From a virus (taxonomy: Duplodnaviria > Heunggongvirae > Uroviricota > Caudoviricetes), in the IMG/VR virus record IMGVR_UViG_2534681604_000009: a stretch of DNA of 29,767 bases; one strand, given 5' to 3'. A program made the position numbers and the translations under genes. The notes under the pieces are model-generated. The model was not told where the DNA came from. It saw only the letters and a program-made list of their open reading frames with translations, and did not search any database. Positions 302-29,767 of the stretch are shown here, one piece after another (the first letter of the stretch is position 1; every line of letters starts with the position of its first letter).

Positions 302-1465
302 TCACTCATCATCTTCTGTTTCATACTCCACATCAGAAAGTCTTACCTCAAGCTCCAAGGACGTCGTGAAGCCGCTATTATTCAGAAAATGTGTCACCTT
401 AGTGATTGTCCAGTCCTGCTCGTCTATGACGCGCTTAAAGCCAGACACTTTAACCGGTGTTTCCGTGTAAATATCTGCCCGACCGGTAGCCAGGCTGATG
501 GAGAACTCCGCAACGCCCCGTTGCAGTTTATCCCACTTCGCCTGAGCGGCGCGCATGGCCTGCGCTTTTGTGGCATATACCGTAGTCAGGGCAAAAACGT
601 TGTCAGCTTCACCGGCCATGTATTCACCTTCGCGCGCTTCCGGTACTTTTGGCGCTTTCTTCTGCGTGACTGGTTTCGCTTTCGGGTGCTCCAGTGCGCG
701 CAGGTGTTTCTCTTTCTTTTTGCGTTTCAGTTTTACCTTCTGCTTTTGCGGTTTCGGGTCTTTGGTGTGTAGCCATTTTGCCGTTACACCGGTGTAGGCT
801 CCACGGTCAGCAATCGCAAAATGATGACGGTCGCCGTCGCTGCGGGTGATGGTGACCTGCGGGATTTTTTTACCGCTGGCCGTCCCCCCCTGCCCCGCTT
901 TGAGAAACAACAGTTTTCCCATTTTTACCGACACCTCCCCGCCGTTGCGTTCAGCAAGACGGGTCAGGAATTTCGCATCAGACTCCTGCGACTGGTCGAT
1001 GTGCGGGATTTTAATTCCGGCCAGTGGCGGAGCGACACTGGCTTCCAGCCTGTTACGGGAGGCTATCGCCTCAACAATCGCACCGAGCGTGGTGTCATGC
1101 CAGGAGCCTTCACGGCGGGAATTGAGCGTGCCACGAAAATCTGCACTCCGGGCCCGGATGGTGACCACATCCGGCGCGCCCCGGTGTTCTACCTCATCAA
1201 CGGTGAATTTCCCTTTGCATACCAGGGCAAAACCTTTCCAGCCGATATACACCGTCAGGACAGCGCCACGAACCGGCAGCCCGACCTGCCCGTCGGCATC
1301 GTTCAGTTCAATATCAAGCTGGTCAGCCTCAAAACCCCGGTTATCCGTCAGGATCATACTCATCAGACGGTCGCTGATATTGCCGGTAATATCCCTGCTG
1401 TCGAGCATCAGCATGTAATCCGGCGTCAGCGTACTGCCTGCATCAAATGTCAGCGCATCCAGCAT
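302..1465 (-). CDS. D: Tail protein D (late control gene D protein)
   Basis: 387-aa ORF with an ATG start (cat at 1463..1465 on the + strand). Its length and its position between U and ogr match P2 gpD. It has a lysine-rich internal linker (KPQKQKVKLKRKKKEK). Confidence 0.9.
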   Translation of the reverse strand: MLDALTFDAGSTLTPDYMLMLDSRDITGNISDRLMSMILTDNRGFEADQLDIELNDADGQVGLPVRGAVLTVYIGWKGFALVCKGKFTVDEVEHRGAPDVVTIRARSADFRGTLNSRREGSWHDTTLGAIVEAIASRNRLEASVAPPLAGIKIPHIDQSQESDAKFLTRLAERNGGEVSVKMGKLLFLKAGQGGTASGKKIPQVTITRSDGDRHHFAIADRGAYTGVTAKWLHTKDPKPQKQKVKLKRKKKEKHLRALEHPKAKPVTQKKAPKVPEAREGEYMAGEADNVFALTTVYATKAQAMRAAQAKWDKLQRGVAEFSISLATGRADIYTETPVKVSGFKRVIDEQDWTITKVTHFLNNSGFTTSLELEVRLSDVEYETEDDE

Positions 1466-5413: not shown

Positions 5414-6604
5414 TTAATTGCTGTTAACCGAAGTGACCAGACTTGCCAGGTATCTGGAAGTAATACGCTGGCGCAGGGTCAGATTTTCAAGAGGAGGCAC
5501 CGGGGTATAGTCGTAGTCGATATACAGTTTTCCGGCCTTGAGGGTTTCCGCATCGTTGGATTCTTCGCTGAACCAGCATGTGCCATCCACGATATAACCG
5601 TTGTTTTTCAGCTCACGGAATTTGGCATTGATGCCGTCAATGATGTCGCGAATCAGCGTTGCGGTGATGGGCTTATCAATAGCCCACATGTGCGCCTCAG
5701 CCATAGTGTCGGCCAGTACCTGCGCGGTGCGGGTGTAGCTTTCAAAGAGGAACAGCGGGTCATCGGAGCAGGTACGGTTACCCCAGAATCGGAAACCGTC
5801 GCGGCGAACCAGCGTTGTGACGCCTGCCTCGTTCAACAGGTCAGCATCAGTGCCGGACTTCTGCAAATCCCAGAATACAGATGCGCTGATGCCGGTAACA
5901 CCGTTTACCCCGACGTTGGACAGCGTTTTATGCCAGCCCTGCTCCTGGTCGATTTTAGCGCGCAGACCCAGCGCACGGGCGGTGGCATACGCGGTGGCGG
6001 TGGTACTGGTGACCGTATCCCATGCGAGGAAATCCGGCCAGATGACCATCAGCTCACGCTGGCTGAAATTCTGGCGGTAGGCTTTCACCTCGGAAATGGT
6101 TTTACAGCCCCATGCGCTGATATACCCGAATGCATTCAGTTCCTGGCATACCGATGCCAGTGCAACAGCCACCTCTTTGGTGTCCAGCCCCGGCACACCA
6201 AGAATGCGCGGTTTAACGCCGGTAACCGACTCAGCCCCCATCAGGGCTTTCAGTCCGGTGTACTGACCGTTTTCGTCGGTGGTGCCGATGATATTGGAAA
6301 CGGTCTGCGCGAGTTTCGTTTCCTCGTCGTCGCCGGTGCCGTCTTCCACACGCACGACAACGGTGACCGGTTTTGACTGGTCGGCGATGGCCTGCAACGA
6401 TGCCGCCAGCGTGCCTTTTTTACCAGCCTTTGCAATTGCGCTCTGCACATTGGTAATCAGCACCGGTTTATTGAGGGGGAAGGTTTCCGCATCCGCATCG
6501 CTGGCCGTGCAGACCATGCCGACAATGGCAGTGGATACGGTGGAAATGACGCGGGTGCCGTCGTTAATCTCCAGCACCTGCACGCCGTGATGATAGTCAC
6601 TCAT
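5414..6604 (-). CDS. FI: Contractile tail sheath protein FI
   Basis: 396-aa ORF and first gene of the FI-FII-E-T-U-D block. A GGAG sequence lies upstream of the ATG at 6602..6604 (- strand). Confidence 0.9.
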   Translation of the reverse strand: MSDYHHGVQVLEINDGTRVISTVSTAIVGMVCTASDADAETFPLNKPVLITNVQSAIAKAGKKGTLAASLQAIADQSKPVTVVVRVEDGTGDDEETKLAQTVSNIIGTTDENGQYTGLKALMGAESVTGVKPRILGVPGLDTKEVAVALASVCQELNAFGYISAWGCKTISEVKAYRQNFSQRELMVIWPDFLAWDTVTSTTATAYATARALGLRAKIDQEQGWHKTLSNVGVNGVTGISASVFWDLQKSGTDADLLNEAGVTTLVRRDGFRFWGNRTCSDDPLFLFESYTRTAQVLADTMAEAHMWAIDKPITATLIRDIIDGINAKFRELKNNGYIVDGTCWFSEESNDAETLKAGKLYIDYDYTPVPPLENLTLRQRITSRYLASLVTSVNSN

Positions 6605-6700
6605 CCGTTTAACTCCGTGGTTAATGGGTGCAACTATTGTCTGTTGGGCAGTGCATGAGACGCTATTTGACCTGACTGGTCAGTGGATGAAACAACAGAT
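6605..6700 (-). promoter_or_regulatory. Region expected to hold the Ogr-dependent late promoter of the FI operon
   Basis: Placed by synteny with the P2 late promoter P_F. I could not find a clean TGT-N12-ACA element; a CTGACTGGTCAG palindrome lies around 6671..6683. Confidence 0.3.
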
Positions 6701-6729
6701 AAAGAAAAGGCGGGCAATCAGCCCGCCTG
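6701..6729 (-). terminator. GC hairpin (GGCGGGC-aatca-GCCCGCC) with a U-tract on the - strand; possible insulator or terminator upstream of FI
   Basis: The inverted repeat is at 6709..6715 and 6721..6727. The + strand aaagaaaa at 6701..6708 gives UUUUCUUU after the stem on the - strand. Confidence 0.35.
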
Positions 6730-6781
6730 CCTTGATTTGTACTCACTCAGTTTCCAACTGACAAATTACGTAACCAAAACC

Positions 6782-6797
6782 CTGTCAAATCTGACAG
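6782..6797. repeat. Inverted repeat CTGTCA-aatc-TGACAG
   Basis: Read directly from the sequence at 6782..6797, about 150 bp upstream of the cargo ORF. Confidence 0.5.
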
Positions 6798-6818
6798 TCT
6801 GCTTTGAGCGAGGAGCGG

Positions 6819-6840
6819 ACGATGAATTCGAATTCATCGT
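6819..6840. repeat. Perfect 22-bp palindrome ACGATGAATTC|GAATTCATCGT (candidate operator)
   Basis: Read directly from the sequence; it is its own reverse complement and contains two abutting GAATTC hexamers. It lies about 105 bp upstream of the cargo ORF start. Confidence 0.5.
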
Positions 6841-6945
6841 AAAAATTTTTATGGCCAAGTAGCTCTATAAGGCCTTTCATTAAAGCTATCTTTGTCACAA
6901 AGCTTATGCAAAAAGTGACTTTATCTTTAAATCTAATAAGATAAC

Positions 6946-7761
6946 ATGATTGACGAAACTCCAAAATCAACTTTACTTAAGCAAAAACGAGGCATGCAAT
7001 TGAAAAAGATTAGGAAAATCAATAAAAAAATCATTGATGAATTGCTATCTCTTCGCGAATCAAGAGGAGCTATAGAAGACTTCTCAATGTCTTTCCTACT
7101 AAATTTTGCAGAAAATTGTCGACTTATGCATTCACTTATTTCAACGAAAGATAAGAAAATAGATATTTACAAAACAGCATATCGACAATATTTTGTATTT
7201 CTAATCAGTTGCTGGGAAACCTATTTTAGAGACGTTTTTGTTTTCGTGCACTCAGTTGATGAATCTAGAATTGCAACACTACTATCTAAAATGAGAACAG
7301 AAACATCTATCAATATAAATACCGAGATAAATCTATCAGAATTATTGAGTAAAAGCTTTAACTTTCAAAACTTAAACGACCTTGAAGAAGCATATAATGG
7401 CATGTGGGGTGAGAGCTTTTTAGACTACATATGTACAACTAATATATCGCCTTGCGGTCTGAGTGGCCAGATTTCCCAAGGTTTATCGATAGAAAATATA
7501 TTTCCAGACTGGAGAGCCCTCATAGAGGAAGCATTTTACATTAGGCACAAAGTGGTTCACGATGCAAACTTCAGACCTAAAGTCAACATTGAATTAATCA
7601 GTAAGGTAGAGACTTTGTTTTTAATAATCCCTCAATTTGCAACGCATATCATATCAGAAAGATTCAACTTAAAAAAAATCGTCATTTCAGATGGTCAAAA
7701 TAACCATACCTATATTCTCAATGTCAGTGATATATTATCTGATGATTGGGTTGTTAGTTGA
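6946..7761 (+). CDS. Hypothetical protein, AT-rich cargo ORF at the Z/fun-equivalent variable locus (candidate defence or abortive-infection gene)
   Basis: 271-aa ORF in opposite orientation to the flanking late genes, visibly AT-rich (about 30 percent GC in the 60-nt blocks I counted). It lies between G and FI, the position of Z/fun in P2. An R-x4-H motif (IRHKVVHD, codons 7543..7560) is present. The start is uncertain: 6946 has a weak SD and an alternative ATG is at 6994. Confidence 0.7.
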   Translation: MIDETPKSTLLKQKRGMQLKKIRKINKKIIDELLSLRESRGAIEDFSMSFLLNFAENCRLMHSLISTKDKKIDIYKTAYRQYFVFLISCWETYFRDVFVFVHSVDESRIATLLSKMRTETSININTEINLSELLSKSFNFQNLNDLEEAYNGMWGESFLDYICTTNISPCGLSGQISQGLSIENIFPDWRALIEEAFYIRHKVVHDANFRPKVNIELISKVETLFLIIPQFATHIISERFNLKKIVISDGQNNHTYILNVSDILSDDWVVS

Positions 7762-7784
7762 TGATGGAATTGTAAGTATATTAA

Positions 7785-7834
7785 CACAAAAAACAAAGAA
7801 ACTAATGAAGTCCGCTTCTGGCACAGAGCGGACT
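7785..7834 (-). terminator. Rho-independent terminator after G (end of the V-W-J-I-H-G operon)
   Basis: Stem aGTCCGCT (7809..7816), loop tctggcacag, stem AGCGGACt (7827..7834). On the - strand it is followed by the U-rich tract UUCAUUAGUUUCUUUGUUUUUUGUGUU. A weaker T-run lies on the + strand side, so it may act in both directions. Confidence 0.5.
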
Positions 7835-7894
7835 GTCAGATTAGTTTTTACTCTGTGCCATAGATGAGTAATCTCACACCAGATCTAATACGAT

Positions 7895-8473
7895 TTATTG
7901 TGGCATTTCAGGCCATTCTATATCCGGAGCATCTTCCGGCTGAACGCGATTCAGTAGCACACGGTATTTTTTCCAGTGTGTCAGACTTAACTTTTCTTCC
8001 TCGGTAGCCATATCTAAATCGACAGCATCCTGCAGCGTGGCAATAATTTCACCGGCATATGCAATCTGCTCTTTCCTCTGAGACTCCGCCGCTCTGACAA
8101 GTGCATCACGCTCTGCATTCTCATCATTCACCCACGCATTTCCGTTCCATTTCTGATAATCCCCATCCGGGGAAATGGCTGTCACGTCAGGTGGTAATGC
8201 ACCAAGTTCAGAAATATATATGGCTGCTCCTGTTTTTGTTTCATAGACAGTTTTCCCACGATGGTCCTCTATCAAATGCCATTTCATTTCGTCTGCATTG
8301 AAAACGGCAGCATAGCCAGCCGGAATATCTGGAGGTGCAATGTCTGTACTGTTTGCAGGCAGACCAGTATGCGGCGGAATATATGCATCGCTTTCGCCAA
8401 TAAATTCATTGCTTCCATCCAGTAAATTAAATACACGAATAGTTTGTGCCTCTGCACTCATTCTGAAAGTCAT
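7895..8473 (-). CDS. G: Tail fibre assembly chaperone G
   Basis: 192-aa ORF immediately downstream of H, with a TAATG stop/start overlap. Position matches P2 gpG. Confidence 0.85.
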
Positions 8474-10251
8474 TATGCCAGCCTCACAATATAGTTAAAT
8501 GCGATGTTTTTAACGGTGTTTTCTGAATTACCCGTAGCATTTACCGTGATGGTATGTCCGTGCGCCCCCAATGCCACAGTGTGTGCATGGGCACCAATAC
8601 CTACGGTGTGGTTATGTTGACCAATGTCGACAGTATGAGCATGGTTCCCTGCTGCACTTGATGTTCCATTAAATGATGGATTATCAAAACCTGTATAACC
8701 GGTTTCACTGTTGGTTCTGGCATTACCCCTGTAAATGGTATGGGTATGATTACCTGTTGTATTGGTGGTTTTGGTGCCATGGTTAAACGTGCTGACTGTC
8801 TTCGTGCCGTAATCAAATGAACTTGTCGTTTTCGTTCCTAAATCCGTATTTGACGCACTGGCGCTGTGAGTATGCGATTTAATACCGTCCTGTTCCTGAG
8901 ACAATACAGCACGACCACTAGCGGGTTTACCCTTGATTATCCAGCCGCGCAAATCTGGAATCACTCCTGACGGATAAGCGACTGCAAGCAGGGGATAGGC
9001 TGCTTTATCAAAAGTCTGCCCCTGCATAATGGCATAGCCTGTAGGTACTGAATCAGAAGGCCACGGGATCGGAGCACCTGCCGGAAAGTTGTTGTACCCG
9101 TCATGATGAATCAACTTCCAGCCTTTAAAAACACCTGCGCAAACTGCCGCAAAACCGATTACATCTCCATTAAAATCAATGCCAATAACAGTATTGTATC
9201 CCTGAGTATTGCTGTGTGCAGAGTTGATGTAGTGCTTCCAGGTGTGTCCTCCAGGCATTCCATTCTTTGCTGAGGAAGCATTAAAAAAGCCACCACGCGT
9301 ACGTAAATCAGTAGCAATATCACTTATATTTTCGGCGTACTCATTTAATCCCGCTCCTTTAGGTACTCGCTTGTTTGCATTGTCATTAGCAGCTTTCACT
9401 GCTTTCGGAGTCGCGGCAAGCGTTTCAGAATCGCTGTTGGTGGCACTACTTAGCTGGACAAGCCCTTTTCGTGCCGTGGTGGCGTCCTGTGCGGTGTATT
9501 TGCCATTAGCAAGGTCATATGCTGTCTTAACCGCCTTTGGCGTTGCTGCGAGCGTCTCAGATTCGCTGTTGGTGGCACTACTTAGCTGAACAAGACCTTT
9601 TCGCCCCGTGCTGGCGTCCTGAGCGGTATATTTTCCGTTAGCAAGGTCATACGCTGCCTTAACCGCCTTCGGCGTTGCGGCCAGCGTTTCAGATTCACTA
9701 TTGGTCGCGCTGCTTAACTGAGTAAAACCTTTTGCAGTCAGTGAGGCGTCCGGATGGCGTCGTGACTGTTCGTGCTCTGCAATTTTGTCATCAACGTAAT
9801 CCTGCGTCGCCATCACCGTTGTGGTGTCGATGGTCAGATCCACTGAGGCCACACTGCTGACGATAATGACCATGCGGCAGGTCTGCGAACGTCCTGAGCC
9901 TTCGGCAAGGGCAGGCTTATAACTTTCGGCCATGTTCGCCACGGCAATTAACGCACCGGTATCATCGTACAGACCAAGTTCACGCATCCAGAAACCGCCC
10001 ACCTCCGGCGGGATGACCAGCTCTGCGATAATATAATTACTGTGTCGATTGTCCTGACTGATTTTATTCAGGGCATGTCGCCAGACCTCATTAACAAGTT
10101 TTGTCTGTCCGGCATCCGGCACCGGCAATTGACCGCCACCGTCCCCGACGGCCATCGTGGTAATGTTGACCTTCCTGCCTCCCGGTGCAGTCGCCGCTGC
10201 CAGCTTTGCTGCACCGGCAGTAGTGATAACGGTTTGGAACTTTACGCTCAT
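8473..10251 (-). CDS. H: Tail fibre protein H
   Basis: 592-aa ORF with a conserved P2-like N-terminus, internal tandem repeats and a C-terminal region rich in HxH motifs (HTH, HAH, HNH, HGH). Confidence 0.9.
9382..9725. repeat. Tandem repeat of about 126 bp, about 2.7 copies, inside H
   Basis: Three near-identical protein units [35 protein letters not shown](S/T)T(G/A)RKGLVQ at H residues about 179..290. The DNA repeats are visible at 9400..9720. Confidence 0.7.
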
Positions 10252-19117: not shown

Positions 19118-20890
19118 ATGACCATCACCACAGACACCACTCTTTTACACGACCCGCGTCGTCAGGCGGCGCTGCTGTACTGGCAGGGATTTTCCGTGCC
19201 GCAGATTGCCGCCATGTTGCAGATGAAACGCCCGACGGTGCAGAGCTGGAAACAGCGCGACGGCTGGGACAGCGTTGCCCCCATCAGCCGTGTCGAAATG
19301 AGTCTGGAAGCGCGGCTGACCCAGCTCATCATCAAACCGCAGAAAACCGGCGGTGATTTCAAGGAAATTGACCTGCTGGGACGCCAGATTGAACGACTGG
19401 CACGGGTAAACCGCTACAGCCAGACCGGCAACGAGGGAGACCTTAATCCGAACGTCGCTAACCGCAACAAAGGCGGGCGGCGCAAACCGAAAAAGAATTT
19501 TTTCAGTGACGAGGCCATCGAAAAGCTGGAGCAGATTTTCTTTGAGCAGTCTTTCGATTATCAGTTGCACTGGTATCGCGCCGGGCTTGAGCACCGCATC
19601 CGCGATATCCTGAAATCCCGCCAGATTGGCGCGACGTTTTATTTTTCCCGCGAGGCGCTGCTGCGCGCCCTGAAAACCGGTCATAACCAGATTTTTCTGT
19701 CGGCCAGTAAAACGCAGGCGTATGTGTTCCGTGAATACATCATCGCCTTTGCCCGTCTGGTTGACGTTGACCTGACCGGTGACCCGATTGTCCTGGGCAA
19801 TAACGGCGCAAAACTGATTTTTCTCGGCACCAACTCCAACACCGCGCAGAGCCATAACGGCGACCTGTACGTCGACGAGATTTTCTGGATCCCGAATTTT
19901 CAGGTGCTGCGTAAGGTGGCATCAGGTATGGCCTCACAGAGTCACCTGCGATCGACCTATTTCTCCACCCCGTCCACGCTGGCGCACGACGCCTACCCGT
20001 TCTGGTCGGGTGAACTGTTCAACCGGGGACGCGCCAGCGCCGCCGAACGCGTGGAAATCGACGTCAGTCATAACGCCCTTGCCGGTGGGCTTCTCTGTGC
20101 GGACGGCCAGTGGCGGCAGATTGTCACCATTGAGGACGCCCTGAAAGGCGGCTGCACGCTGTTCGACATTGAGCAGCTCAAACGCGAAAACAGTGCCGAC
20201 GATTTTAAAAACCTGTTCATGTGTGAATTTGTTGACGACAAGGCATCGGTGTTCCCGTTCGAGGAGCTGCAACGCTGCATGGTCGACACGCTGGAAGAAT
20301 GGGAAGACTATGCGCCGTTTGCCACCAATCCGTTCGGCTCCCGCCCGGTATGGATTGGTTACGACCCGTCACACCGTGGCGACAGCGCCGGATGCGTGGT
20401 GCTGGCACCGCCGGTGGTGGCCGGTGGCAAATTCAGAATACTTGAGCGTCACCAGTGGAAAGGCATGGACTTTGCCACTCAGGCTGAATCCATCCGCAAA
20501 CTCACCGAAAAATACAACGTCGAATACATCGGAATTGATGCCACCGGCCTCGGTGTCGGCGTGTTCCAGCTCGTGCGCTCGTTCTATCCCGCCGCGCGCG
20601 ACATCCGCTACACGCCGGAAATGAAAACCGCAATGGTGCTCAAGGCAAAAGACGTCATCCGCCGTGGCTGTCTGGAATATGACGTCAGCGCCACCGACAT
20701 CACCAGCTCGTTTATGGCTATCCGCAAGACCATGACCAGCAGCGGACGCAGCGCCACCTATGAGGCCAGCCGCAGCGAGGAAGCCAGCCACGCCGACCTC
20801 GCCTGGGCAACCATGCACGCCCTTTTAAATGAGCCACTCACCGCCGGTATCAGCACCCCGCTGACATCCACCATTCTGGAGTTTTACTGA
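19118..20890 (+). CDS. P: Terminase ATPase (large) subunit P
   Basis: Trimmed to the ATG at 19118, which is preceded by GAGG. This gives a 590-aa product MTITTDTTLLHDPRRQ.... Confidence 0.9.
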   Translation: MTITTDTTLLHDPRRQAALLYWQGFSVPQIAAMLQMKRPTVQSWKQRDGWDSVAPISRVEMSLEARLTQLIIKPQKTGGDFKEIDLLGRQIERLARVNRYSQTGNEGDLNPNVANRNKGGRRKPKKNFFSDEAIEKLEQIFFEQSFDYQLHWYRAGLEHRIRDILKSRQIGATFYFSREALLRALKTGHNQIFLSASKTQAYVFREYIIAFARLVDVDLTGDPIVLGNNGAKLIFLGTNSNTAQSHNGDLYVDEIFWIPNFQVLRKVASGMASQSHLRSTYFSTPSTLAHDAYPFWSGELFNRGRASAAERVEIDVSHNALAGGLLCADGQWRQIVTIEDALKGGCTLFDIEQLKRENSADDFKNLFMCEFVDDKASVFPFEELQRCMVDTLEEWEDYAPFATNPFGSRPVWIGYDPSHRGDSAGCVVLAPPVVAGGKFRILERHQWKGMDFATQAESIRKLTEKYNVEYIGIDATGLGVGVFQLVRSFYPAARDIRYTPEMKTAMVLKAKDVIRRGCLEYDVSATDITSSFMAIRKTMTSSGRSATYEASRSEEASHADLAWATMHALLNEPLTAGISTPLTSTILEFY

Positions 20891-21924
20891 TGAGCAAGAA
20901 AAAAGGGAAAACACCGCAACCTGCGGCAAAAACAATGACCGCCAGCGCCCCGAAAATGGAGGCATTCACCTTTGGCGAGCCGGTGCCGGTACTCGACCGC
21001 CGTGACATTCTGGATTACGTCGAATGCATCAGTAACGGCAGATGGTATGAGCCGCCGGTCAGCTTTACCGGTCTGGCCAAAAGCCTGCGTGCTGCCGTGC
21101 ATCACAGCTCACCGATTTACGTCAAACGTAATATTCTGGCCTCGACATTTATCCCGCATCCGTGGCTTTCCCAGCAGGATTTCAGCCGCTTTGTGCTGGA
21201 TTTTCTGGTGTTCGGTAATGCGTTTCTGGAAAAGCGATACAGCACCACCGGTAAGGTCTTCAGACTGGAAACCTCACCGGCAAAATATACCCGCCGTGGC
21301 GTGGAGGAGGATGTTTACTGGTGGGTGCCGTCCTTCAACGAGCCGACACCTTTCGCGCCCGGCTCCGTGTTTCACCTGCTGGAGCCGGATATTAATCAGG
21401 AGCTGTACGGCCTGCCGGAATATCTCAGCGCCCTTAACTCTGCCTGGCTGAATGAGTCGGCCACGCTGTTCCGCCGCAAGTATTACGAAAACGGCGCACA
21501 TGCCGGATATATCATGTATATCACCGACGCATTGCAGGACCGCGATTACATTGACTCACTCCGCGAAAACATGGCTAATTCGAAAGGCCGCAATAACTTT
21601 AAAAATCTGTTTCTCTATGCCCCACAGGGAAAGCCAGACGGCATCAAAATTATCCCGCTCAGTGAAGTGGCGACAAAGGACGATTTTTTTAATATCAAAA
21701 AATCCAGCGCCGCAGATCTGCTGGACGCGCACCGCATCCCCTTTCAGTTGATGGGCGGCAAGCCGGAGAATGTCGGGTCGCTGGGTGATATTGAGAAAGT
21801 GGCAAAGGTCTTTGTCCGCAATGAGCTTATCCCGCTACAGGACAGGATTCGGGAAATAAACGGCTGGCTCGGCCAGGAGGTCATCCGCTTTAAAAACTAC
21901 TCACTGGACACTGACAACGGCTGA
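20890..21924 (+). CDS. Q: Portal protein Q
   Basis: 344-aa ORF whose ATG overlaps the P stop (TGATG). It is the last gene before cos. Confidence 0.9.
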   Translation: MSKKKGKTPQPAAKTMTASAPKMEAFTFGEPVPVLDRRDILDYVECISNGRWYEPPVSFTGLAKSLRAAVHHSSPIYVKRNILASTFIPHPWLSQQDFSRFVLDFLVFGNAFLEKRYSTTGKVFRLETSPAKYTRRGVEEDVYWWVPSFNEPTPFAPGSVFHLLEPDINQELYGLPEYLSALNSAWLNESATLFRRKYYENGAHAGYIMYITDALQDRDYIDSLRENMANSKGRNNFKNLFLYAPQGKPDGIKIIPLSEVATKDDFFNIKKSSAADLLDAHRIPFQLMGGKPENVGSLGDIEKVAKVFVRNELIPLQDRIREINGWLGQEVIRFKNYSLDTDNG

Positions 21925-21951: not shown

Positions 21952-22093
21952 ACACCCCGTCATCACGCCCTCACACGCTCACCACCGCACAAAACACCCC
22001 GCAGACACACCAACGCCCCGGCGCACAATCTAAACGCCATCACGACGCGCTCAGGCGCTGAAAAAATAAAATTAGCACCACCGCCTGCGCGCA

Positions 22094-22112
22094 GTGCTTT
22101 CCCCGCCTCGCC
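22094..22112. other. cos: cos cohesive-end sequence (19 nt)
   Basis: The + strand gtgctttccccgcctcgcc is the reverse complement of GGCGAGGCGGGGAAAGCAC, which I recall as the P2/186 19-nt cohesive end. It lies where P2 cos sits, between Q and the right-end variable locus. Confidence 0.7.
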
Positions 22113-22253
22113 CGCCCGCTTCATGGGGCGGTTTTAATGCAGGTGCATCATCCCCCCGGCAAGCGCCTGTTCTGGTGCTCGCTGTCAAAAGATATATTTG
22201 AAAATGAATGCAAATTTATGCACCTAATGCAGGCGAGGCTAAAAAGAACATCT

Positions 22254-23576
22254 TTAGTTTGTTTTTTTAACTCCACTGTATTCAGCTATCATCCTCTCAA
22301 CCGCTGGAAGCAACTCAGCAGGAACGCAAATAGACCTATCTGCCTTTCCAACATCTTTTGGCGTTTTGTAAGTACCATTATAATTAAGGACGCATTCTTT
22401 AAGAATTTCAAAAAGAGAAACAATAGGGTCCACGCCATAGCTATCAATAAACTTTCGATAGCCATCATTATCAGATAACGATGAAATATCTCCATGAACA
22501 AACTTACACCTAAGCTCATAGATTATTCCTATTTTTGAATCAATATCAATAATTTTCGCCGCATCTCTGCAAACACCGCCAATAATTGAATTTTTATTAC
22601 CATTATTGGTTCCATACATAGCATCCAATGCTATAAATTGATTCAAAAACCTTTCACGTTTGTCATCCCTCCACCCGTGCGCTATAAAGGAAAGAGCAGA
22701 CAACATCCTTTTATCAGGTGATGAAAGTATTTTTGTAAGTATCGCCAAGGCTGAATCCGTTATATTTAAATTATATACAGACGGAATATTCACTCGAAAC
22801 TCACTTTCATGATATTTCCCGACACCAAAAGACTCAACTAGATTATTAACAGCAACTCGATTAATCACAAAAGGATTATCAACTGCAAGACATAAAGCTC
22901 CAAACAAACTATCAAACATTTTCACCGCTTTATCCTCTGATGAAGCATATGCCACCACCAAGCAGGATTTTGACTGTCGAAAATATTTCCCAATTGGTTT
23001 ATGCCGCATATATTCATCATCATAAAAATCAACAGGAACCTTGATGTCAGTTTTGTCTTTAATATCAGAAAGTAATTCCACCCCTAGCCCCGGGCCATAT
23101 AAAAATAAATTTTCTCTAAGCTCAAGCTTCCCATCAAAGCCAGCACACCCAAGATTATAAATATATGGACAGGATTTTATTCGTGAACGTATATAATACT
23201 TAAACATCTCACTAAGATTTTTTCTATGAACTTGCGTTATAATATCATCAACACAAATCTTATCAGGATTAAGCGACAGAAAATCAGCATCAATGCGATT
23301 GAAGGCTTCAGAACAAAAACCTAACAATAATCTTTTCGCATTGTGAAGGTCACTTATACCTAATTGGGGACCATATGCTTTTAATAACCTACTAGCACAT
23401 TTTGCAATCTCCTCATCATTATATGCAAGCCAAAAAACAAAATCTTCTAATGCTTTACCGACTTGAATACAAGGCTGCTCCTTACCATGACTATAAAAAA
23501 AACTTTTGCATAATTTGTTTATCATGCCATTAGAGAACGCAACCTTCATAGATACTTCATCCCTTAACGCACTCAT
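22254..23576 (-). CDS. Hypothetical protein, AT-rich cargo ORF at the tin/old-equivalent variable locus (candidate defence or abortive-infection gene)
   Basis: 440-aa ORF co-oriented with and just downstream of A, visibly AT-rich (about 33 to 35 percent GC in the blocks counted). An R-x4-H motif (ELRCKFVHGD, codons 22494..22511) lies in the C-terminal third. An alternative start at Met10 (23549) has an AGGGA SD-like sequence upstream. Confidence 0.72.
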   Translation of the reverse strand: MSALRDEVSMKVAFSNGMINKLCKSFFYSHGKEQPCIQVGKALEDFVFWLAYNDEEIAKCASRLLKAYGPQLGISDLHNAKRLLLGFCSEAFNRIDADFLSLNPDKICVDDIITQVHRKNLSEMFKYYIRSRIKSCPYIYNLGCAGFDGKLELRENLFLYGPGLGVELLSDIKDKTDIKVPVDFYDDEYMRHKPIGKYFRQSKSCLVVAYASSEDKAVKMFDSLFGALCLAVDNPFVINRVAVNNLVESFGVGKYHESEFRVNIPSVYNLNITDSALAILTKILSSPDKRMLSALSFIAHGWRDDKRERFLNQFIALDAMYGTNNGNKNSIIGGVCRDAAKIIDIDSKIGIIYELRCKFVHGDISSLSDNDGYRKFIDSYGVDPIVSLFEILKECVLNYNGTYKTPKDVGKADRSICVPAELLPAVERMIAEYSGVKKTN

Positions 23577-23659
23577 CGATAATAATTCATTATAAGTTAT
23601 TAATACACGACTACTAAAGTATTGCTTCAGATTTGTTAATGTATCATGATGCCATCAGT

Positions 23660-25927
23660 TTAAGAAAACATCACCCAATCGTCTTTTACAGCATAACTAA
23701 ACCGCTCACCTTCATAAATTACTGTTGCCCCGCGCGCCAACGCCTCAAGCTCCCATCGCTGCGGCCTGATACCGTTCTGAGCAAGGTCAACACGGATACG
23801 GGTGATTTGCAATCGTTCAGACCGGGTCAATCTGGCCGATGGTGCAATTTCATGTGGTTTTAACGGGCTTCCGTTTCTTTGCTGACGGTTTGGTGTTCTC
23901 AGGTCGTGTTTTAATGCGCCCCTGAGCGCCCTCACGACCTCCGTGTCATTCCATTCGATAACACCGTCATCAACCAGATTAAGCACTGCTGCGGCGTGTT
24001 CAGAAGGTGTGGGAGCCGGTAACGAAGTATCATCACCGGTGAGCTTTCCACAGTTATTGACAGGACTCCGAGGCGCGGCGATGCCGCTTTTTAAAGTCAA
24101 AGGCTCAACGACCGGAACTTTCGGCACAATGCGCCAGTCCGTCGTTCTGGTGATATGAATATGACGCGCGCCGAGATGCGGCGCGTAAATGCCGACCACT
24201 CTCTCGACTTCTTCCTCATACTCGTTAACGTCATCCGACGGGCTACGGGCAACCCTGACAGTCTGACAATCGCGCGGGACATTTGCCCCACCCTGCGCGC
24301 TGATATACAACGCAAAATCACCACTGTCTGCGGCAGCGCGAGCAGCCTCGACGCGTTCGTCAAACTCATCCGCAATACTGACGCCGCGAGGCAATTTGCG
24401 TAGTTCACGGTAAGCCCCCATTGTCGGCAGTCCAACCGTTTTAAATTGCGGGATGCGCCACGTTGACGCCCATGCGGTAACAGCCGCCGCAGTATCTTTC
24501 AGCGGTCTGCCGGTATCGTTATCGAGCTGACCATCCAGTGCATAGCCGTCGATATTTTTCGAAATGTATTTCGCGATATATCCCGCAGCACCGCCCCGGT
24601 TAAGGTGTTTTGCCTGAAAACGGTTTCGCGCGGCTCCTCTTTCGTCGCCATCCTCTTTGAGCGCATAGCGACGCATGATTTCGATAATCTGGTTACGCTG
24701 GCGTGGATTACAAAAAAGCATCATATGCCAGTGCGGCGTTCCGTCGTGGTGTGGCTCGACGACTCGCAAACCGTAGACCTGTAAATCATTATCCTTGAAT
24801 GCCGTGCGCATCAGGCTCCAGATACGGCAGAGATAACGCTGCGCATCCTTTGGATTAAATGCCTCATCATTCCAGCCGTGATTAAGCTGGACGGTTTTAT
24901 TTTCGCCTTTTCCAACCTGACGTGTCGGGTGATACTTTGACGGCGCGGTAAGCGTGATAAACATCCCCACATCACCCTCTGAGGCGGCGTAACGCTCAAT
25001 ACCGGCAATGGTGTTCATCAGCTCCATCCGGCGAATTTCAGGATTAGAAATACTGCCCATCACCTTACTGATAAGGTCGATGCGCTCGCCGGTTTCCTTG
25101 TTTTCAAGGTCACACGATTTAAGAAATTCCAGATTTGCCTGGCGGCGCGCACGCACATCACGAATGGCATGTTTACTGGCATAAGGAGAACGGTCTTTAT
25201 TCACCTCCCCAACAGCAATCAGTAACGCCTCATGCCAGCGCATACGCTGGCCTTTAAGCTGATGAGTCCACCACTCATCGTTAAACAGACGGGCAATGGC
25301 AGAATATGCCTGCCTCGTGGTCATCTGTCCTTTACGGTATTTTTTCCAGTAGAGAGGGGAAATATTGAAAGCACGTGCAGCGCCAGCAACATGACCATAG
25401 AGGTGAGCCTGCGCCTCATCCGTAAACAGCGATTCTTTCTCGCCATGCGCATCCACCCAGGCATCGCAGAGTTCCTCATACATCATGAAAAGCTGTGATG
25501 AGATACGGGCGGCAAACTTTTTCAGCTCCTTGTCATTCATCCCCGGCAGGCGCGCATACTGGTCGCGCTCTGCCAGAAACAGCAACGACGCGTCGGTGTT
25601 CATTTCATGGCGCTGATTCACGCGCTCAATGCGCGGCCATAAACGACGCTGAAAAGTGGATGTGAGGAAATAAAACCCGTGCACCGGGCTTTTATTGCGC
25701 CGGATGTAGTCATAGCGTGAAGTAAACAGCGAGCGCAAAAAGTAAGGCAGGCGGTTAATCGTGGATAAAACACCTTGCACCTGACGCATCTCGTCACGTG
25801 TAAGGGGTCTTTCGCGCCCGACAGCCTCGCGTGGCGCGTTCCATGCATAAGCACCGGTAAACGCCTTACCGGTGCCTGCGGCAAATGCTGACGGAGGGAC
25901 AAAACGCCCGGAGGCTTTAACGGCCAT
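23660..25927 (-). CDS. A: Replication initiation protein A (rolling-circle HUH nickase)
   Basis: Large ORF with an HUH-like motif (PHWHMMLF) and paired tyrosines (YIAKYISK). The track ORF begins with TTG at 25969; I prefer the ATG at 25925..25927 (MAVKASGRF...), but the start is uncertain. Confidence 0.88.
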   Translation of the reverse strand: MAVKASGRFVPPSAFAAGTGKAFTGAYAWNAPREAVGRERPLTRDEMRQVQGVLSTINRLPYFLRSLFTSRYDYIRRNKSPVHGFYFLTSTFQRRLWPRIERVNQRHEMNTDASLLFLAERDQYARLPGMNDKELKKFAARISSQLFMMYEELCDAWVDAHGEKESLFTDEAQAHLYGHVAGAARAFNISPLYWKKYRKGQMTTRQAYSAIARLFNDEWWTHQLKGQRMRWHEALLIAVGEVNKDRSPYASKHAIRDVRARRQANLEFLKSCDLENKETGERIDLISKVMGSISNPEIRRMELMNTIAGIERYAASEGDVGMFITLTAPSKYHPTRQVGKGENKTVQLNHGWNDEAFNPKDAQRYLCRIWSLMRTAFKDNDLQVYGLRVVEPHHDGTPHWHMMLFCNPRQRNQIIEIMRRYALKEDGDERGAARNRFQAKHLNRGGAAGYIAKYISKNIDGYALDGQLDNDTGRPLKDTAAAVTAWASTWRIPQFKTVGLPTMGAYRELRKLPRGVSIADEFDERVEAARAAADSGDFALYISAQGGANVPRDCQTVRVARSPSDDVNEYEEEVERVVGIYAPHLGARHIHITRTTDWRIVPKVPVVEPLTLKSGIAAPRSPVNNCGKLTGDDTSLPAPTPSEHAAAVLNLVDDGVIEWNDTEVVRALRGALKHDLRTPNRQQRNGSPLKPHEIAPSARLTRSERLQITRIRVDLAQNGIRPQRWELEALARGATVIYEGERFSYAVKDDWVMFS
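24050..24078 (-). other. ori: Candidate origin of replication (A-protein nick region) inside the A coding sequence
   Basis: The - strand reads GCGCCTCGGAGTCCTGTCAATAACTGTGG, encoding APRSPVNNCG of gpA. P2 ori is known to lie within gene A, and this matches my recollection of the nick-region sequence, which I cannot verify here. Confidence 0.4.
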
Positions 25928-26192
25928 ATGAGCCAAAAGCCTCAGAACAACGCTTGCTGAGTTGCTCAACCTGCGCGTTTAAATCAGCAAAAGACTTTGC
26001 GCCTCCGGTCAGAATATCGTGATGCATCAGGCCGGAAACGAGCTGGCTTAATTTCGGGTAATAACCAACCACCGCCAGCCATTCCTGACCGACGTTTTTA
26101 CCGCTTTCCGCTCTCTTTTTCTCGTGGAGAATAAACTGAAAGCTGTCACTGGTAACGACATAACGTTCGCCAATTTCAATACGAATACTCAT
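25917..26192 (-). CDS. Hypothetical early protein
   Basis: 91-aa ORF with an ATG start, located directly upstream of A in the early operon. Confidence 0.6.
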   Translation of the reverse strand: MSIRIEIGERYVVTSDSFQFILHEKKRAESGKNVGQEWLAVVGYYPKLSQLVSGLMHHDILTGGAKSFADLNAQVEQLSKRCSEAFGSYGR

Positions 26193-26413
26193 GCCATTCT
26201 CCGGTAATGCTTGTTTTTTGCTTCAAAGACTGACTGACAGGAAACACAACGCGTGGCTGACGGGTAAGCCGCACGACGGGCAGCAGGTATTGGCGCGTCA
26301 CACTCTTCGCAAACCAGCGCAGAAGCACCGCAATGTTTTACCCTTGCCGCGTTAATCTGGCGCTCCAGTAATTCAGCCTGTTGTTCCTGAATAAAATCTA
26401 CGTTGTCCGGCAT
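26189..26413 (-). CDS. TraR/DksA-family C4 zinc-finger protein
   Basis: 74-aa ORF with C-x2-C-x17-C-x2-C (CEEC...CVSC), the TraR/DksA zinc-finger signature. It sits where the P2 early-operon zinc-finger ORF lies. Confidence 0.8.
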   Translation of the reverse strand: MPDNVDFIQEQQAELLERQINAARVKHCGASALVCEECDAPIPAARRAAYPSATRCVSCQSVFEAKNKHYRRMA

Positions 26414-26703
26414 TACCAGTTCCTTTTGTCGTTCAGTTTCTTAAATTCATCAGCGCAATAGCTGGTGACTTCTGTCGTTAATTTTGTCAGTTCATCCACG
26501 GAGGAAATTTGCTTATGAAATACAGCGCGTTTAACAAGTAAATTGACCACATCAGACAGGAGATTTAATTTATCCGCATAAATGGCTATAGTTGATTCAA
26601 CCATATCCCCAGTGTTTTTATCGCGTTTAATATCAGCTAGCGACAAATCACCATTTTTCATAACTGAAATCTTCAGCCAGTTATTAAGCAATATATTTTT
26701 CAT
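26413..26703 (-). CDS. Hypothetical protein (AT-rich small ORF in the early operon)
   Basis: 96-aa ORF with an ATG start, noticeably AT-rich, coupled by an ATGA overlap to the upstream ORF. Confidence 0.55.
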   Translation of the reverse strand: MKNILLNNWLKISVMKNGDLSLADIKRDKNTGDMVESTIAIYADKLNLLSDVVNLLVKRAVFHKQISSVDELTKLTTEVTSYCADEFKKLNDKRNW

Positions 26704-26945
26704 TCGCTATATGCCCTCTCCGCAGAATCAATCATTTCCCGGCCATTATCGGTAATACAGAAACCTTCTCTTGATTTGGTCACAAGCCCCCATTTCCCCA
26801 TTGCTATAAATGCTTTTTCCACACGACTAGGCCAGGAGCGGAAGACATCGCTTGATGGATGTAGTGGAGTCTTGTCATCTAATTTTTTAAGTAATGAAAG
26901 TTGATAATCTGTTAAGCGTTTCCTGAACCATTTTGTATTTGTCAT
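26700..26945 (-). CDS. Hypothetical protein (AT-rich small ORF in the early operon)
   Basis: The track ORF starts at TTG (26951); I prefer the ATG at 26943..26945, which is preceded by AGGAAAG...GGAG. Product about 81 aa. Confidence 0.55.
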   Translation of the reverse strand: MTNTKWFRKRLTDYQLSLLKKLDDKTPLHPSSDVFRSWPSRVEKAFIAMGKWGLVTKSREGFCITDNGREMIDSAERAYSE

Positions 26946-26959
26946 CTCCAACTTTCCTG

Positions 26960-27172
26960 TTATTTATTGAGTCCTAGATTATGGAATTTGGCAGACTCCT
27001 GACTGAGCAACTCGACTATCTCCACGCGGGATAACTCCGCCTTTGTGATGTGGCGAATCATGGCATCAAGATGAGACGAAAAGCGCGTTGCTGCGTCGGC
27101 CTGTGCTTCGGTTCTGGCCTGTTGCAGCATTAATGCGTATTTACCGCACTGATTTTCAGAAACTGTATGCAT
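26960..27172 (-). CDS. Hypothetical early protein
   Basis: 70-aa ORF with an ATG start, between B and the AT-rich pair. Confidence 0.55.
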
Positions 27173-27913: not shown

Positions 27914-28285
27914 TTAAGCCGCACGGCCATGTCTTGATTTGCTGTAACTAATGCGATTTTTCCAGTCGTGCCATTCTGTCGGAGCTTCATCAACTAGCTG
28001 GGCTGCGTACTTGTCCCACTCACGGCGATTAATCCATAATTCAGCTTTCCCTCTTGGTTTTAATGGGTCTGTCATGTAGAAGGCTGGCAGCTTTCCTGCT
28101 TTAGCCATTTCAGCCACCGCGCGTGGTGTCTTACCGATGTAAAGAGCAAAACCTTCTTTCGACAGCAAATCAGATGGGCGCTCTGAAATCTGAATGCTTT
28201 TACGTTTGGCTTCATTTTCGAAACTTGCCTCATCGCTAGTCGGACAAGAAATTTCTACATTTGTCGTCACTTTGCTATCCTCCAT
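27914..28285 (-). CDS. cox: Cox-like HTH regulator / excisionase
   Basis: The segment FALYIGKTPRAVAEMAKAGKLPAFYMTDP aligns with the P2 Cox HTH (FAKLIGKSTGAVRRMIDKGKLPVIDMTDP, from memory). It is divergent from C. The 123-aa ORF implies an N-terminal extension of about 30 aa relative to P2 Cox, and the true start is uncertain. Confidence 0.75.
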   Translation of the reverse strand: MEDSKVTTNVEISCPTSDEASFENEAKRKSIQISERPSDLLSKEGFALYIGKTPRAVAEMAKAGKLPAFYMTDPLKPRGKAELWINRREWDKYAAQLVDEAPTEWHDWKNRISYSKSRHGRAA

Positions 28286-28378
28286 AAGATTTGCGATTCA
28301 CCAACTGGAGCCATCTAGAGCCTTTTTGAGCGAATCACAAATTGCCAAGTAACAATATAATTGGAGATTAGCAAAATT
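28286..28378. promoter_or_regulatory. Immunity switch region with divergent early (cox side) and repressor (C side) promoters and operators
   Basis: Intergenic region between divergent cox and C. It holds an imperfect direct repeat GCGATTCAC (28293..28301) and GCGAATCAC (28330..28338), and a TATAAT hexamer at 28356..28361. Exact promoter assignments are not resolved. Confidence 0.5.
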
Positions 28379-28678
28379 ATGTCAAGTGAACAAAGTGAGA
28401 AACTAAAGCTCATCCGTGAATCCGAACGCCTTAAAACTAAGGAACTTGCTGAATTAATTGGAATTAATTACTACACATATCATGGATATGAATCAGGAAA
28501 ATCAAAAATGCCTATGGAAGCAGGTATGAAGCTGTTTAAGCATCCACGCTTTCGCAAGTATCGTGACTGGTTCATGTTTGATGAAACAGATCCAGCAGCT
28601 GGACAAATAGCCCCGGCTCTCGCACACATTGGGCAAGACTCAACAACCTTGCACCACTCAGACCAGAAGACTGGCTGA
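28379..28678 (+). CDS. C: Immunity repressor C
   Basis: The track ORF begins with TTG at 28361; the ATG at 28379 gives a 99-aa product. The C-terminus ...GQIAPALAHIGQDSTTLHHSDQKTG closely matches the P2 C C-terminus as I recall it, while the N-terminal half differs. Confidence 0.85.
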   Translation: MSSEQSEKLKLIRESERLKTKELAELIGINYYTYHGYESGKSKMPMEAGMKLFKHPRFRKYRDWFMFDETDPAAGQIAPALAHIGQDSTTLHHSDQKTG

Positions 28679-28771
28679 CGATTTATTCAGCATATGTGTG
28701 TAGTAAATGTACGAAAGAAAATTGCATTAATTTTCAAGTAGTAGAAGTAAACAGCGTCATCGGAGGGCTTT

Positions 28772-29767
28772 ATGTCTATTAAAAAGCTCGATGATGGTCG
28801 TTATGAAGTGGACGTCAGACCGCAGGGTGCGGATGGAAAACGTATCAGGCGGAAATTTAAAACTAAAGGTGAAGCTCAAGCATTCGAACGTCATGTACTG
28901 GTTAACTACCACAACAAAGAGTGGTTGGAGAAACCAGCCGACCGCCGAACTCTTACAGAGTTGTTAGGCAGATGGTGGATATATCACGGAAAATCACATG
29001 AGCGTGGAGATATTGAACGGGGGCGTTTAACGACAATAATCGCCAAATTTGCAGAAATGGGAGTGTCCAGAGCTGACCAGCTAACAAAGAAAACGATAAC
29101 TGATTATCGCGTTGTAATGATGAACGATGGTCTGAAACCAGCCAGCGTAAATCGACATCTGGCAATAATGAGCGGGATGTTCACCAAGTTAATTGACGCC
29201 GGTGAATACCACTCTCACAACCCGTTCCGTGAGATTAAACGGTTACGTGAAGCTGTTACGGAAATGGCTTTTTTGTCCAGTGAAGAGATTACGCGGCTGT
29301 TATCCATGCTTGATGGTGATGAATTAAATGCAACTCTGGTCTGCCTTTCTACTGGTGGACGCTGGAGTGAAGTGTCTAATTTAAAAGCTGAACACATCAT
29401 TAACCAGATGGTTACGTTTATGAAAACTAAAAACGGAAAACGCAGGACAATTCCCGTTTCGCAGGACCTGATTAAACGGATCAAGACCAAAAATTCAGGC
29501 AGGCTTTTTAATGCCAGTTACTACAAAGTGCGTAACGCTCTCAGGGAAGTAAAACCCGATTTACCTGACGGACAAGCAGTACATGTTTTGAGGCATACAT
29601 TTGCCACACATTTTATAATGAATGGAGGTAACATAATCACATTGCAGCGCATCCTGGGTCATTCTAACATTCAGCAAACTATGACCTACGCACACTTTGC
29701 ACCGGATTTCTTACAAGATGCTGTGACTCTTAACCCGGTGTCAGGAATGTCCATAATGCGTCCATAA
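28772..29767 (+). CDS. int: Tyrosine integrase
   Basis: 331-aa ORF downstream of C on the same strand, with GGAGGG upstream of the ATG. It has tyrosine-recombinase motifs (HVLRHTFATH, TMTYAHF). The stop codon is the last codon of the window. Confidence 0.9.
   Translation: MSIKKLDDGRYEVDVRPQGADGKRIRRKFKTKGEAQAFERHVLVNYHNKEWLEKPADRRTLTELLGRWWIYHGKSHERGDIERGRLTTIIAKFAEMGVSRADQLTKKTITDYRVVMMNDGLKPASVNRHLAIMSGMFTKLIDAGEYHSHNPFREIKRLREAVTEMAFLSSEEITRLLSMLDGDELNATLVCLSTGGRWSEVSNLKAEHIINQMVTFMKTKNGKRRTIPVSQDLIKRIKTKNSGRLFNASYYKVRNALREVKPDLPDGQAVHVLRHTFATHFIMNGGNIITLQRILGHSNIQQTMTYAHFAPDFLQDAVTLNPVSGMSIMRP

Follow-up and report, generated by a model that had tools for sequence, protein, structure and literature searches.

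What is the function of the single AT-rich gene that a P2-like prophage carries between its replication gene A and its cos site? In the P2-like phages of Escherichia coli, anti-phage systems gather in a hotspot between gpA and gpQ (Rousset et al. 2022), and the DNA considered here, the 29,767-nucleotide IMG/VR virus record IMGVR_UViG_2534681604_000009 (Caudoviricetes; its full length is called the window throughout), holds at that position one 440-amino-acid (aa) open reading frame (ORF). A preliminary description, drawn from the letters alone, had presented this ORF as a candidate undescribed defence gene at a known site of defence exchange, and had offered as an unproven model a HEPN-type toxic effector with an N-terminal sensor domain. 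The documented hotspot bears out the site, and on re-reading of the sequence the ORF coordinates, the orientation shared with A, the 83-base-pair (bp) spacer, the low G+C content (GC) and the motif LRCKFVHGD were all correct. Weighing the evidence below, we hold with moderate confidence that the gene encodes a single-protein, abortive-infection-type HEPN ribonuclease that serves as an anti-phage effector, a moron of the P2-like prophage at a defence hotspot.

A predicted HEPN ribonuclease domain in the C-terminal part of the protein

Conservation singles out two residues, R356 and H361, both carried by the confirmed motif LRCKFVHGD (Table 1). Among 26 close homologues R356 is invariant and H361 is kept in all but one (25/26), and when 61 relatives of 14-39% identity were aligned these two positions were the sole invariant columns, with R290, D318, G322 and G362 nearly invariant. 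The arginine and the histidine were again the only invariant columns in an alignment of 43 isolated C-terminal domains, and also in 12 full-length-like relatives. In AlphaFold models of the full-length protein (predicted local distance difference test score, pLDDT, 81.9; predicted template modelling score, pTM, 0.72) and of the domain by itself (pLDDT 85.3, with the core above 90), R356 ends the helix spanning residues 345-360 and H361 begins the loop toward the next helix, while the second core helix contains D318, helices 2 and 3 are separated by a short insert helix, and the final helix is kinked. This layout fits the HEPN description of Anantharaman et al. 2013, in which an acidic residue sits in helix 2, an insert separates H2 from H3, and H4 is kinked.

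The protein has those defining features of the HEPN superfamily that were tested: the conserved Rx4-6H motif, as R356-x4-H361, and the conserved acidic residue of helix 2, as D318 in 'ALDAL', which aligns to the E of the ApeA sequence 'ALESL'. Figures for the topology of the HEPN domain were 5.6 for AbiA, 5.5 for Csx1 and 5.3 for AbiV. Alignments and models together show residues ~274-400 as a predicted compact HEPN four-helix domain, in which R356-x4-H361 and D318 of helix 2 would form a metal-independent ribonuclease site. The Pfam, PADLOC and Foldseek checks that the preliminary description had suggested gave no family match, and only noise for Foldseek against PDB; the structure prediction that it had also suggested did yield the four-helix HEPN bundle. 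Beyond the domain, the tail of residues 401-440 was found in the close subfamily only and is modelled with low confidence.

A putative distant tie to ApeA and comparison with other HEPN systems

ApeA (Pfam HEPN_Apea, PF18739; cryo-EM structures such as 9hxm) is reportedly a single-gene HEPN defence, one attributed to Gao et al. 2020. When the profile of the HEPN domain was searched against PDB with hmmsearch, the top match was the defence protein Ec4ApeA (9hxm; E=0.0032), aligned in two collinear pieces, H1-H2 '..RKKISSAFRFFRNG...RFTAYWSALESL' and the catalytic helix (LRNxxxH) 'LHRLYLLRNTIVH', between which ApeA has ~100 extra residues. Ec4ApeA-like genes were then taken from plasmids and six diverse ones aligned for hhalign, in which H1-H2 scored a probability of 57.6% (E 1e-4) and the catalytic helix reached E 4e-3. 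The pattern common to our family and ApeA reads '..R...a..F...g.....RF....iAL(D/E)aL' followed by 'LY.LR..(I/L)VH'. Judged by these profile comparisons, the putative link between the HEPN core and ApeA is weak but consistent.

In overall plan the two also agree, each being the product of a single gene whose N-terminal part lacks known homology and whose C-terminal HEPN domain has a conserved R-x4-H. They differ in almost everything around that core: ApeA proteins run to ~590-620 aa, with a mostly helical N-terminal domain and a Mid domain, whereas ours is ~170 aa shorter at 440 aa, and the ApeA HEPN domain is split (~250 aa, with ~100-aa H2-H3 insertions), whereas ours is compact (~125 aa). 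Two alignments of residues 1-262, compared by hhalign with the six-sequence ApeA alignment, gave a probability of 0.1-0.5%, and the N-terminal domain is alpha/beta here, whereas the ApeA monomer has been described as predominantly alpha-helical (10.64898/2026.01.26.701840). With Pfam, HEPN_Apea gave no match at E<=10 to the protein and 25 close homologues, and matched one of the 61 remote relatives at 0.018. Because the Pfam and PADLOC models fail, the N-terminal and Mid domains are absent, the HEPN domain is compact and the protein is shorter, it is not a member of the ApeA family. ApeA assembles into a decameric or dodecameric ring with a ligand pocket and cleaves tRNA anticodons (10.64898/2026.01.26.701840), and by analogy our protein probably works in a similar way, as an autoinhibited ribonuclease that an infection cue would switch on to cleave tRNA anticodon loops.

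As an observation on ApeA itself, the 46-aa fragment of 9hxm that served as query recurs with 100% identity in the Ec4ApeA-like gene, which is widespread on large conjugative plasmids of Enterobacterales (>100 records), where it is labelled 'hypothetical protein'. On the Klebsiella variicola plasmid pKP91 (L013 1490-3319 and 3488-5138) it adjoins the anti-phage gene ppl.

Other HEPN systems, and the cargo of P2 itself, were compared as well. HepS, from the Gifsy-1 prophage, is an anticodon nuclease that a phage structural protein switches on; HepS and Tha (from Staphylococcus aureus prophages) are prophage-borne single HEPN abortive-infection proteins that defend the lysogen, but they belong to another phage family and another locus, and no sequence similarity or top-ranked structural similarity to them was found. 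DARNA, an E. coli single-protein HEPN defence activated by single-stranded DNA and SSB, cuts tRNA anticodon loops; its HEPN domain is N-terminal, since the catalytic histidine is H122, whereas ours is C-terminal, and PADLOC and profile searches gave no similarity between the two. The type VII toxin-antitoxin systems HepT/MNT (also TTHA0636, HI0074 and 8xdj) pair stand-alone toxins of ~120-140 aa with an MNT antitoxin gene, whereas our HEPN domain is part of a 440-aa protein, where a 270-aa N-terminal domain precedes it, and has no neighbouring antitoxin gene. The old and tin genes of P2 itself occupy the place between A and cos that our gene takes here, are morons as it is, and have the role in exclusion or defence of the lysogen that we propose for our gene. 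Yet Pfam, PADLOC and NCBIfam gave no OLD ABC-ATPase/TOPRIM or Tin signal, so that these are unrelated proteins and the preliminary description was right to read the ORF as neither Old nor Tin.

An N-terminal domain of no recognisable family

The N-terminal ~270 aa belong to no family or fold that profile searches could recognise, and Foldseek against PDB gave noise. Across the distant full-length relatives, the conserved residues of this region are L84, F87, A211, A217, G226 and P265, all of them hydrophobic or structural, which speaks against a second enzyme domain. Among the profile-search matches listed, the domain occurs just with this HEPN domain or as short fragments. We propose that it is a sensor, regulatory or oligomerisation/assembly module. 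A bolder reading, which we offer only tentatively, is that this alpha/beta domain is a new fold sensing an infection cue new to HEPN defences, in which case the protein would represent a distinct family of abortive-infection ribonucleases, separate from ApeA, HepS, DARNA and Tha. Of the effector-plus-sensor arrangement in the preliminary description, the HEPN part and the N-terminal/C-terminal architecture are backed by conservation, by the model and by the ApeA profile match; the sensing, toxicity, ribonuclease activity and anti-phage phenotype that went with them are properties that we infer.

A foreign, conserved gene at the A-to-cos locus

The window is a P2-like prophage, and the ORF alone fills the gap between A and cos. 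That the reading frame is real is indicated by its length: the other five frames of the same interval hold 17-73 stops each, and the probability of 440 stop-free codons at the composition of the ORF is ~3e-16 (2.6e-16). Its GC is 0.353 and its GC at third codon positions (GC3) 0.27, against a GC of 0.529 for the remaining window and values of 0.53 and 0.54 (GC and GC3) for gene A. The 19-mer that marks cos, the P2 cohesive-end sequence, which the window matches exactly, lies 141 bp beyond the ORF stop codon. On the cos side, the match to P2-like phage records, at 94-97% identity over 22000-22150, ends at ~22150. Composition and boundary show the ORF to be a horizontally acquired AT-rich moron, foreign to the phage backbone.

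The same gene (~99% identity), at the same position between A and Q, is present in 46 of 5,426 complete E. coli genomes (about 1%), and its product is ~99% identical to RefSeq proteins WP_063267205 and WP_053264581. A search of 5.8 billion proteins returned 26 clusters at 45-99% identity, from Escherichia, Citrobacter, Enterobacter, Serratia, Vibrio, Shewanella, Pseudoalteromonas and Idiomarina, and a profile search of 1.84 billion representative proteins returned 225 proteins at E<=1e-3, most of them 390-480 aa long and aligned just over query residues ~270-390. Near end-to-end matches number 33 among the proteins collected (the 26 close clusters plus seven more distant ones). The family comprises at least 225 clusters at 50% identity, spread across many bacteria. 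No copy of the gene turned up when phage records and plasmids were searched with tblastn.

The ratio of nonsynonymous to synonymous substitution rates (dN/dS) is 0.17 between E. coli and Enterobacter or Serratia and 0.27 between Vibrio and Pseudoalteromonas, and by this measure the orthologues are under purifying selection; they are AT-rich in every host (GC 0.34-0.40).

The full protein has no useful match in Pfam (two at noise level, E ~0.15), NCBIfam or PADLOC, and its sole PHROGs match is the unannotated family phrog_23812. Pfam found nothing in the 26 close homologues and, in the 61 remote relatives, only sub-threshold HEPN_Apea, AbiU2 and RiboL-PSP, in one member each, with PADLOC giving only noise for the same 61. 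Against PDB, phmmer returned only noise (E 0.23 or worse), the full-length profile no match and Foldseek noise. No signal peptide was found, and Pfam and NCBIfam gave no similarity to virulence or metabolic families.

Relatives in other moron sites and defence islands

In Enterobacter the orthologue is likewise the sole gene at the A-to-cos site. The orthologue of Serratia quinivorans (53% identity; L010 8001-9218) lies in another P2-like prophage, at the moron site between baseplate V and tail-completion S and in the opposite orientation, and this different site implies that the gene moves between P2 hotspots. Outside P2-like phages, a Vibrio orthologue sits in an island with CBASS (SAVED plus a DncV-like gene) and a HEPN-RES gene, and the island of the Pseudoalteromonas orthologue holds an integrase, a Schlafen-like ATPase and a DEAD/ResIII helicase. 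The Vibrio (L003/L004) and Pseudoalteromonas (L011) proteins are 90% identical across two bacterial orders, with a synonymous divergence (dS) of 0.18, and downstream of the gene L004 and L011 share a small 198-aa integrase-family gene; this identity and the common integrase gene point to recent transfer on a small mobile cassette. The Vibrio cassette additionally has a 222-aa gene of no assigned family and a 374-aa HNH_5 gene, the same pair flanking the homologue in four Vibrio contigs. Farther off, in an island at smpB, a full-length relative of ~19% identity has Kiwa and a type IV restriction enzyme as neighbours, and one more relative comes after a KAP NTPase. The contigs of the remote homologues P0054, P0027, P0038 and P0041 were too short to give a view of their surroundings.

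The gene and its relatives are thus placed at a validated hotspot or in defence islands, and the gene is mobile between the two kinds of site. An HNH gene was considered as a conserved partner and rejected, the HNH neighbours of two homologues being mutually unrelated, and no partner gene is conserved across the homologue neighbourhoods. No antitoxin-like gene adjoins the ORF (its flanks are 83 and 141 bp), and Rfam found nothing in the whole window.

The gene in published catalogues

To call the gene undescribed and without a family, as the preliminary description did, was an overstatement, for three resources already name it. RefSeq/PGAP calls the protein a 'HEPN domain-containing protein'; Table S5A of Rousset et al. 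2022 lists WP_063267205 at P2 loci as HEPN_Apea; and Table S10 of DefensePredictor (Science 2026) lists WP_052908764 (440 aa; cluster representative WP_063267205) as 'Predicted novel defense gene', with a mean log-odds (8.53) above the stringent cut-off (4) and with ApeA as the nearest known system (HHblits 80.7% over 8.6% of the protein). The protein does not appear in DefensePredictor's table of tested systems. Its sequence differs from that of the 'Putative HEPN' cloned by Rousset et al. (pFR103, strain S88), so identity with that gene was rejected, and a domain-centric screen (Nucleic Acids Research, NAR, 2026) was set aside as not relevant since it excludes single-gene systems. Searches of a paper library with the accessions and the PHROG turned up no further mention. 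The gene is, then, already catalogued and predicted to be defensive, apparently without an experimental test.

Proposed function and its alternatives

We envisage that the protein would be made in the lysogen from its own promoter, perhaps the TATAAT at 23589-23594, and would dimerise through its HEPN domains, by likeness to HEPN ribonucleases, whose dimers form a composite active site. The N-terminal domain would keep it inactive until an infection cue is sensed, which could be a phage protein or a nucleic-acid product; once activated, the protein would cleave cellular RNA, arresting translation and so stopping the incoming phage. The likeliest targets would be tRNA anticodon loops, by analogy with ApeA, DARNA, HepS and PrrC/RloC, and single-protein HEPN anticodon nucleases are established defences.

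Several points weigh against this reading. The presumed substrate, trigger and abortive outcome are drawn entirely by analogy; the similarity to ApeA is weak and confined to the HEPN core; and the residue following the catalytic arginine is C or S here, where N, D or H is more typical. Candidates of this kind also fail often: about half of the tested hotspot or predicted candidates show no phenotype on standard phage panels, DefensePredictor had a validation rate of 45%, and Rousset et al. saw defence with 3/8 additional P2 systems, a different 'Putative HEPN' of the P2 hotspot being listed among the additional tested systems and not among the validated ones. We found no experimental report on the protein or on any relative.

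The HEPN ribonuclease might instead have a selfish or phage-specific role, as an addiction or stabilisation toxin of the prophage or as a weapon aimed narrowly at competitors, P2-like phages or P4-type satellites, that share its cos and capsid machinery. The gene does stand directly beside cos and the packaging genes, a cargo of the P2 hotspot is known to act against P2 relatives (Rousset et al. 2022), and HEPN domains are common as toxin domains (Anantharaman et al. 2013). The flanks, however, hold neither an antitoxin-like gene nor an antitoxin-like RNA, and close homologues live outside P2-like phages, in the Vibrio and Pseudoalteromonas defence islands, so that a portable general defence fits better than a P2-specific role; we judge the selfish role unlikely.

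We give still less credence to a HEPN-like domain that is no ribonuclease and serves as a nucleotide- or ligand-binding or scaffolding module in a regulatory or accessory role. Non-catalytic HEPN families have lost the Rx4-6H motif (Anantharaman et al. 2013), whereas here the arginine and histidine are the sole invariant residues over very divergent members, the pattern expected of a catalytic dyad. That the gene is non-defence cargo serving the host in another way, for example in stress or virulence, seems very improbable: plasmid-partition systems and a cytolethal distending toxin do occur in the hotspot (Rousset et al. 2022), but the protein lacks a signal peptide and resembles no virulence or metabolic family, and defence is favoured by its HEPN fold, by where its relatives lie and by the DefensePredictor score. 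Least probable of all is a stranded part of a multi-gene system, inactive alone here and missing a partner such as the Vibrio HNH-domain gene, for although the same two genes flank the homologue in four Vibrio contigs and an HNH gene comes after a remote homologue, the two HNH proteins are not related to each other, the second being a type IV restriction enzyme that stands alone. In E. coli, Enterobacter, Serratia and Pseudoalteromonas, moreover, the gene occurs by itself, and it is intact and under purifying selection.

If the anti-phage HEPN ribonuclease were confirmed, it would add one more family to the single-protein HEPN ribonuclease defences and another validated cargo to the cos-proximal hotspot of P2. 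A sensor domain with no known relative would mean that its trigger is new biology, and the compact HEPN core, distantly tied to ApeA, would help to trace how effectors evolve by swapping sensor domains. It would settle no old debate; gene type, location and probable mechanism all agree with what specialists would anticipate, and the gene has already been flagged in two published resources.

Sequence features, promoter and start codon

Table 1. Coordinates of the ORF, its domains, its surroundings and related genes. Positions are those of the window except in the last row.
Feature	Position	Strand	Remarks
440-aa ORF with stop	22254..23576	-	ATG start, no in-frame stop
N-terminal domain, residues 1-~270	22767..23576	-	mixed alpha/beta
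HEPN domain, residues ~274-400	22377..22757	-	predicted four-helix domain
Helices of the HEPN domain	residues: H1 289-300; H2 306-321; insert helix 328-338; H3 345-360; H4 371-380 and 384-397		R290 in H1; D318 in H2; H4 kinked
R356-C-K-F-V-H361 codons	22494..22511	-	predicted R-x4-H catalytic dyad, from conservation in alignments
C-terminal tail, residues 401-440	22257..22376	-	short strands and helix 420-434
Alternative start M10	23547..23565	-	ATG 23547-23549; AAGGGA 23560-23565, 10 nt upstream
Spacer, gene A stop to ORF start	23577..23659	-	83 bp
Gene A (replication endonuclease)	23660..25969	-	left boundary of the variable locus; RefSeq annotation, Phage_GPA
P2-type cos cohesive-end 19-mer GGCGAGGCGGGGAAAGCAC	22094..22112	-	exact match; right boundary of the variable locus
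Portal gene Q	20890..21924	+	terminase gene also on the plus strand
271-aa AT-rich ORF at fun(Z)	6946-7761	+	in AT-rich stretch 6600-7900; R-x4-H (FYIRHKVVHD)
Vibrio (L003 / L004) and Pseudoalteromonas (L011) genes	8001-9278 / 7964-9241 / 8001-9179		

The spacer between A and the ORF holds a perfect -10 hexamer, TATAAT (23589-23594, minus strand), with a weak -35 that matches at 3/6 positions, the reason why a promoter consensus scan did not call the site; it may be the ORF's own promoter. The annotated start M1 lies 12 nt downstream of this hexamer and has no Shine-Dalgarno sequence, and residues 1-7 have a pLDDT <50 in the model. In several close homologues the protein starts where M10 (MKV...) lies, and with the AAGGGA ahead of M10 and the closeness of TATAAT to M1 this makes a 431-aa product possible, so that the true protein may start at M10.

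A second putative HEPN moron in the same prophage

A further P2 hotspot, the fun(Z) position, lies in the window between the sheath gene FI (5414-6604) and a tail-fibre assembly gene (7895-8473) and holds the 271-aa ORF of Table 1. Pfam HEPN_RiboL-PSP matched this ORF at E=6e-6 with 26.7 bits, just below the cut-off of 28.4, and no PADLOC model matched it; 28 complete E. coli genomes carry it, under the annotation 'hypothetical protein'. From motif and profile, the prophage appears to have two unrelated putative HEPN morons, one per hotspot. The best complete-genome matches of the two cargos come from different strains (99.3% for 22000-23700 and 97.7% for 6650-7890), and among the matches listed the flanks of the second cargo differ from those in the window; the combination seems not to be represented in complete E. 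coli genomes. Paired in this way, the two might act on different phages or serve as a backup for one another.

The window has more low-GC stretches (0.38-0.44), at 26400-27000 and 28000-29500, which fall in the early/immunity region upstream of gene A and contain many small ORFs.

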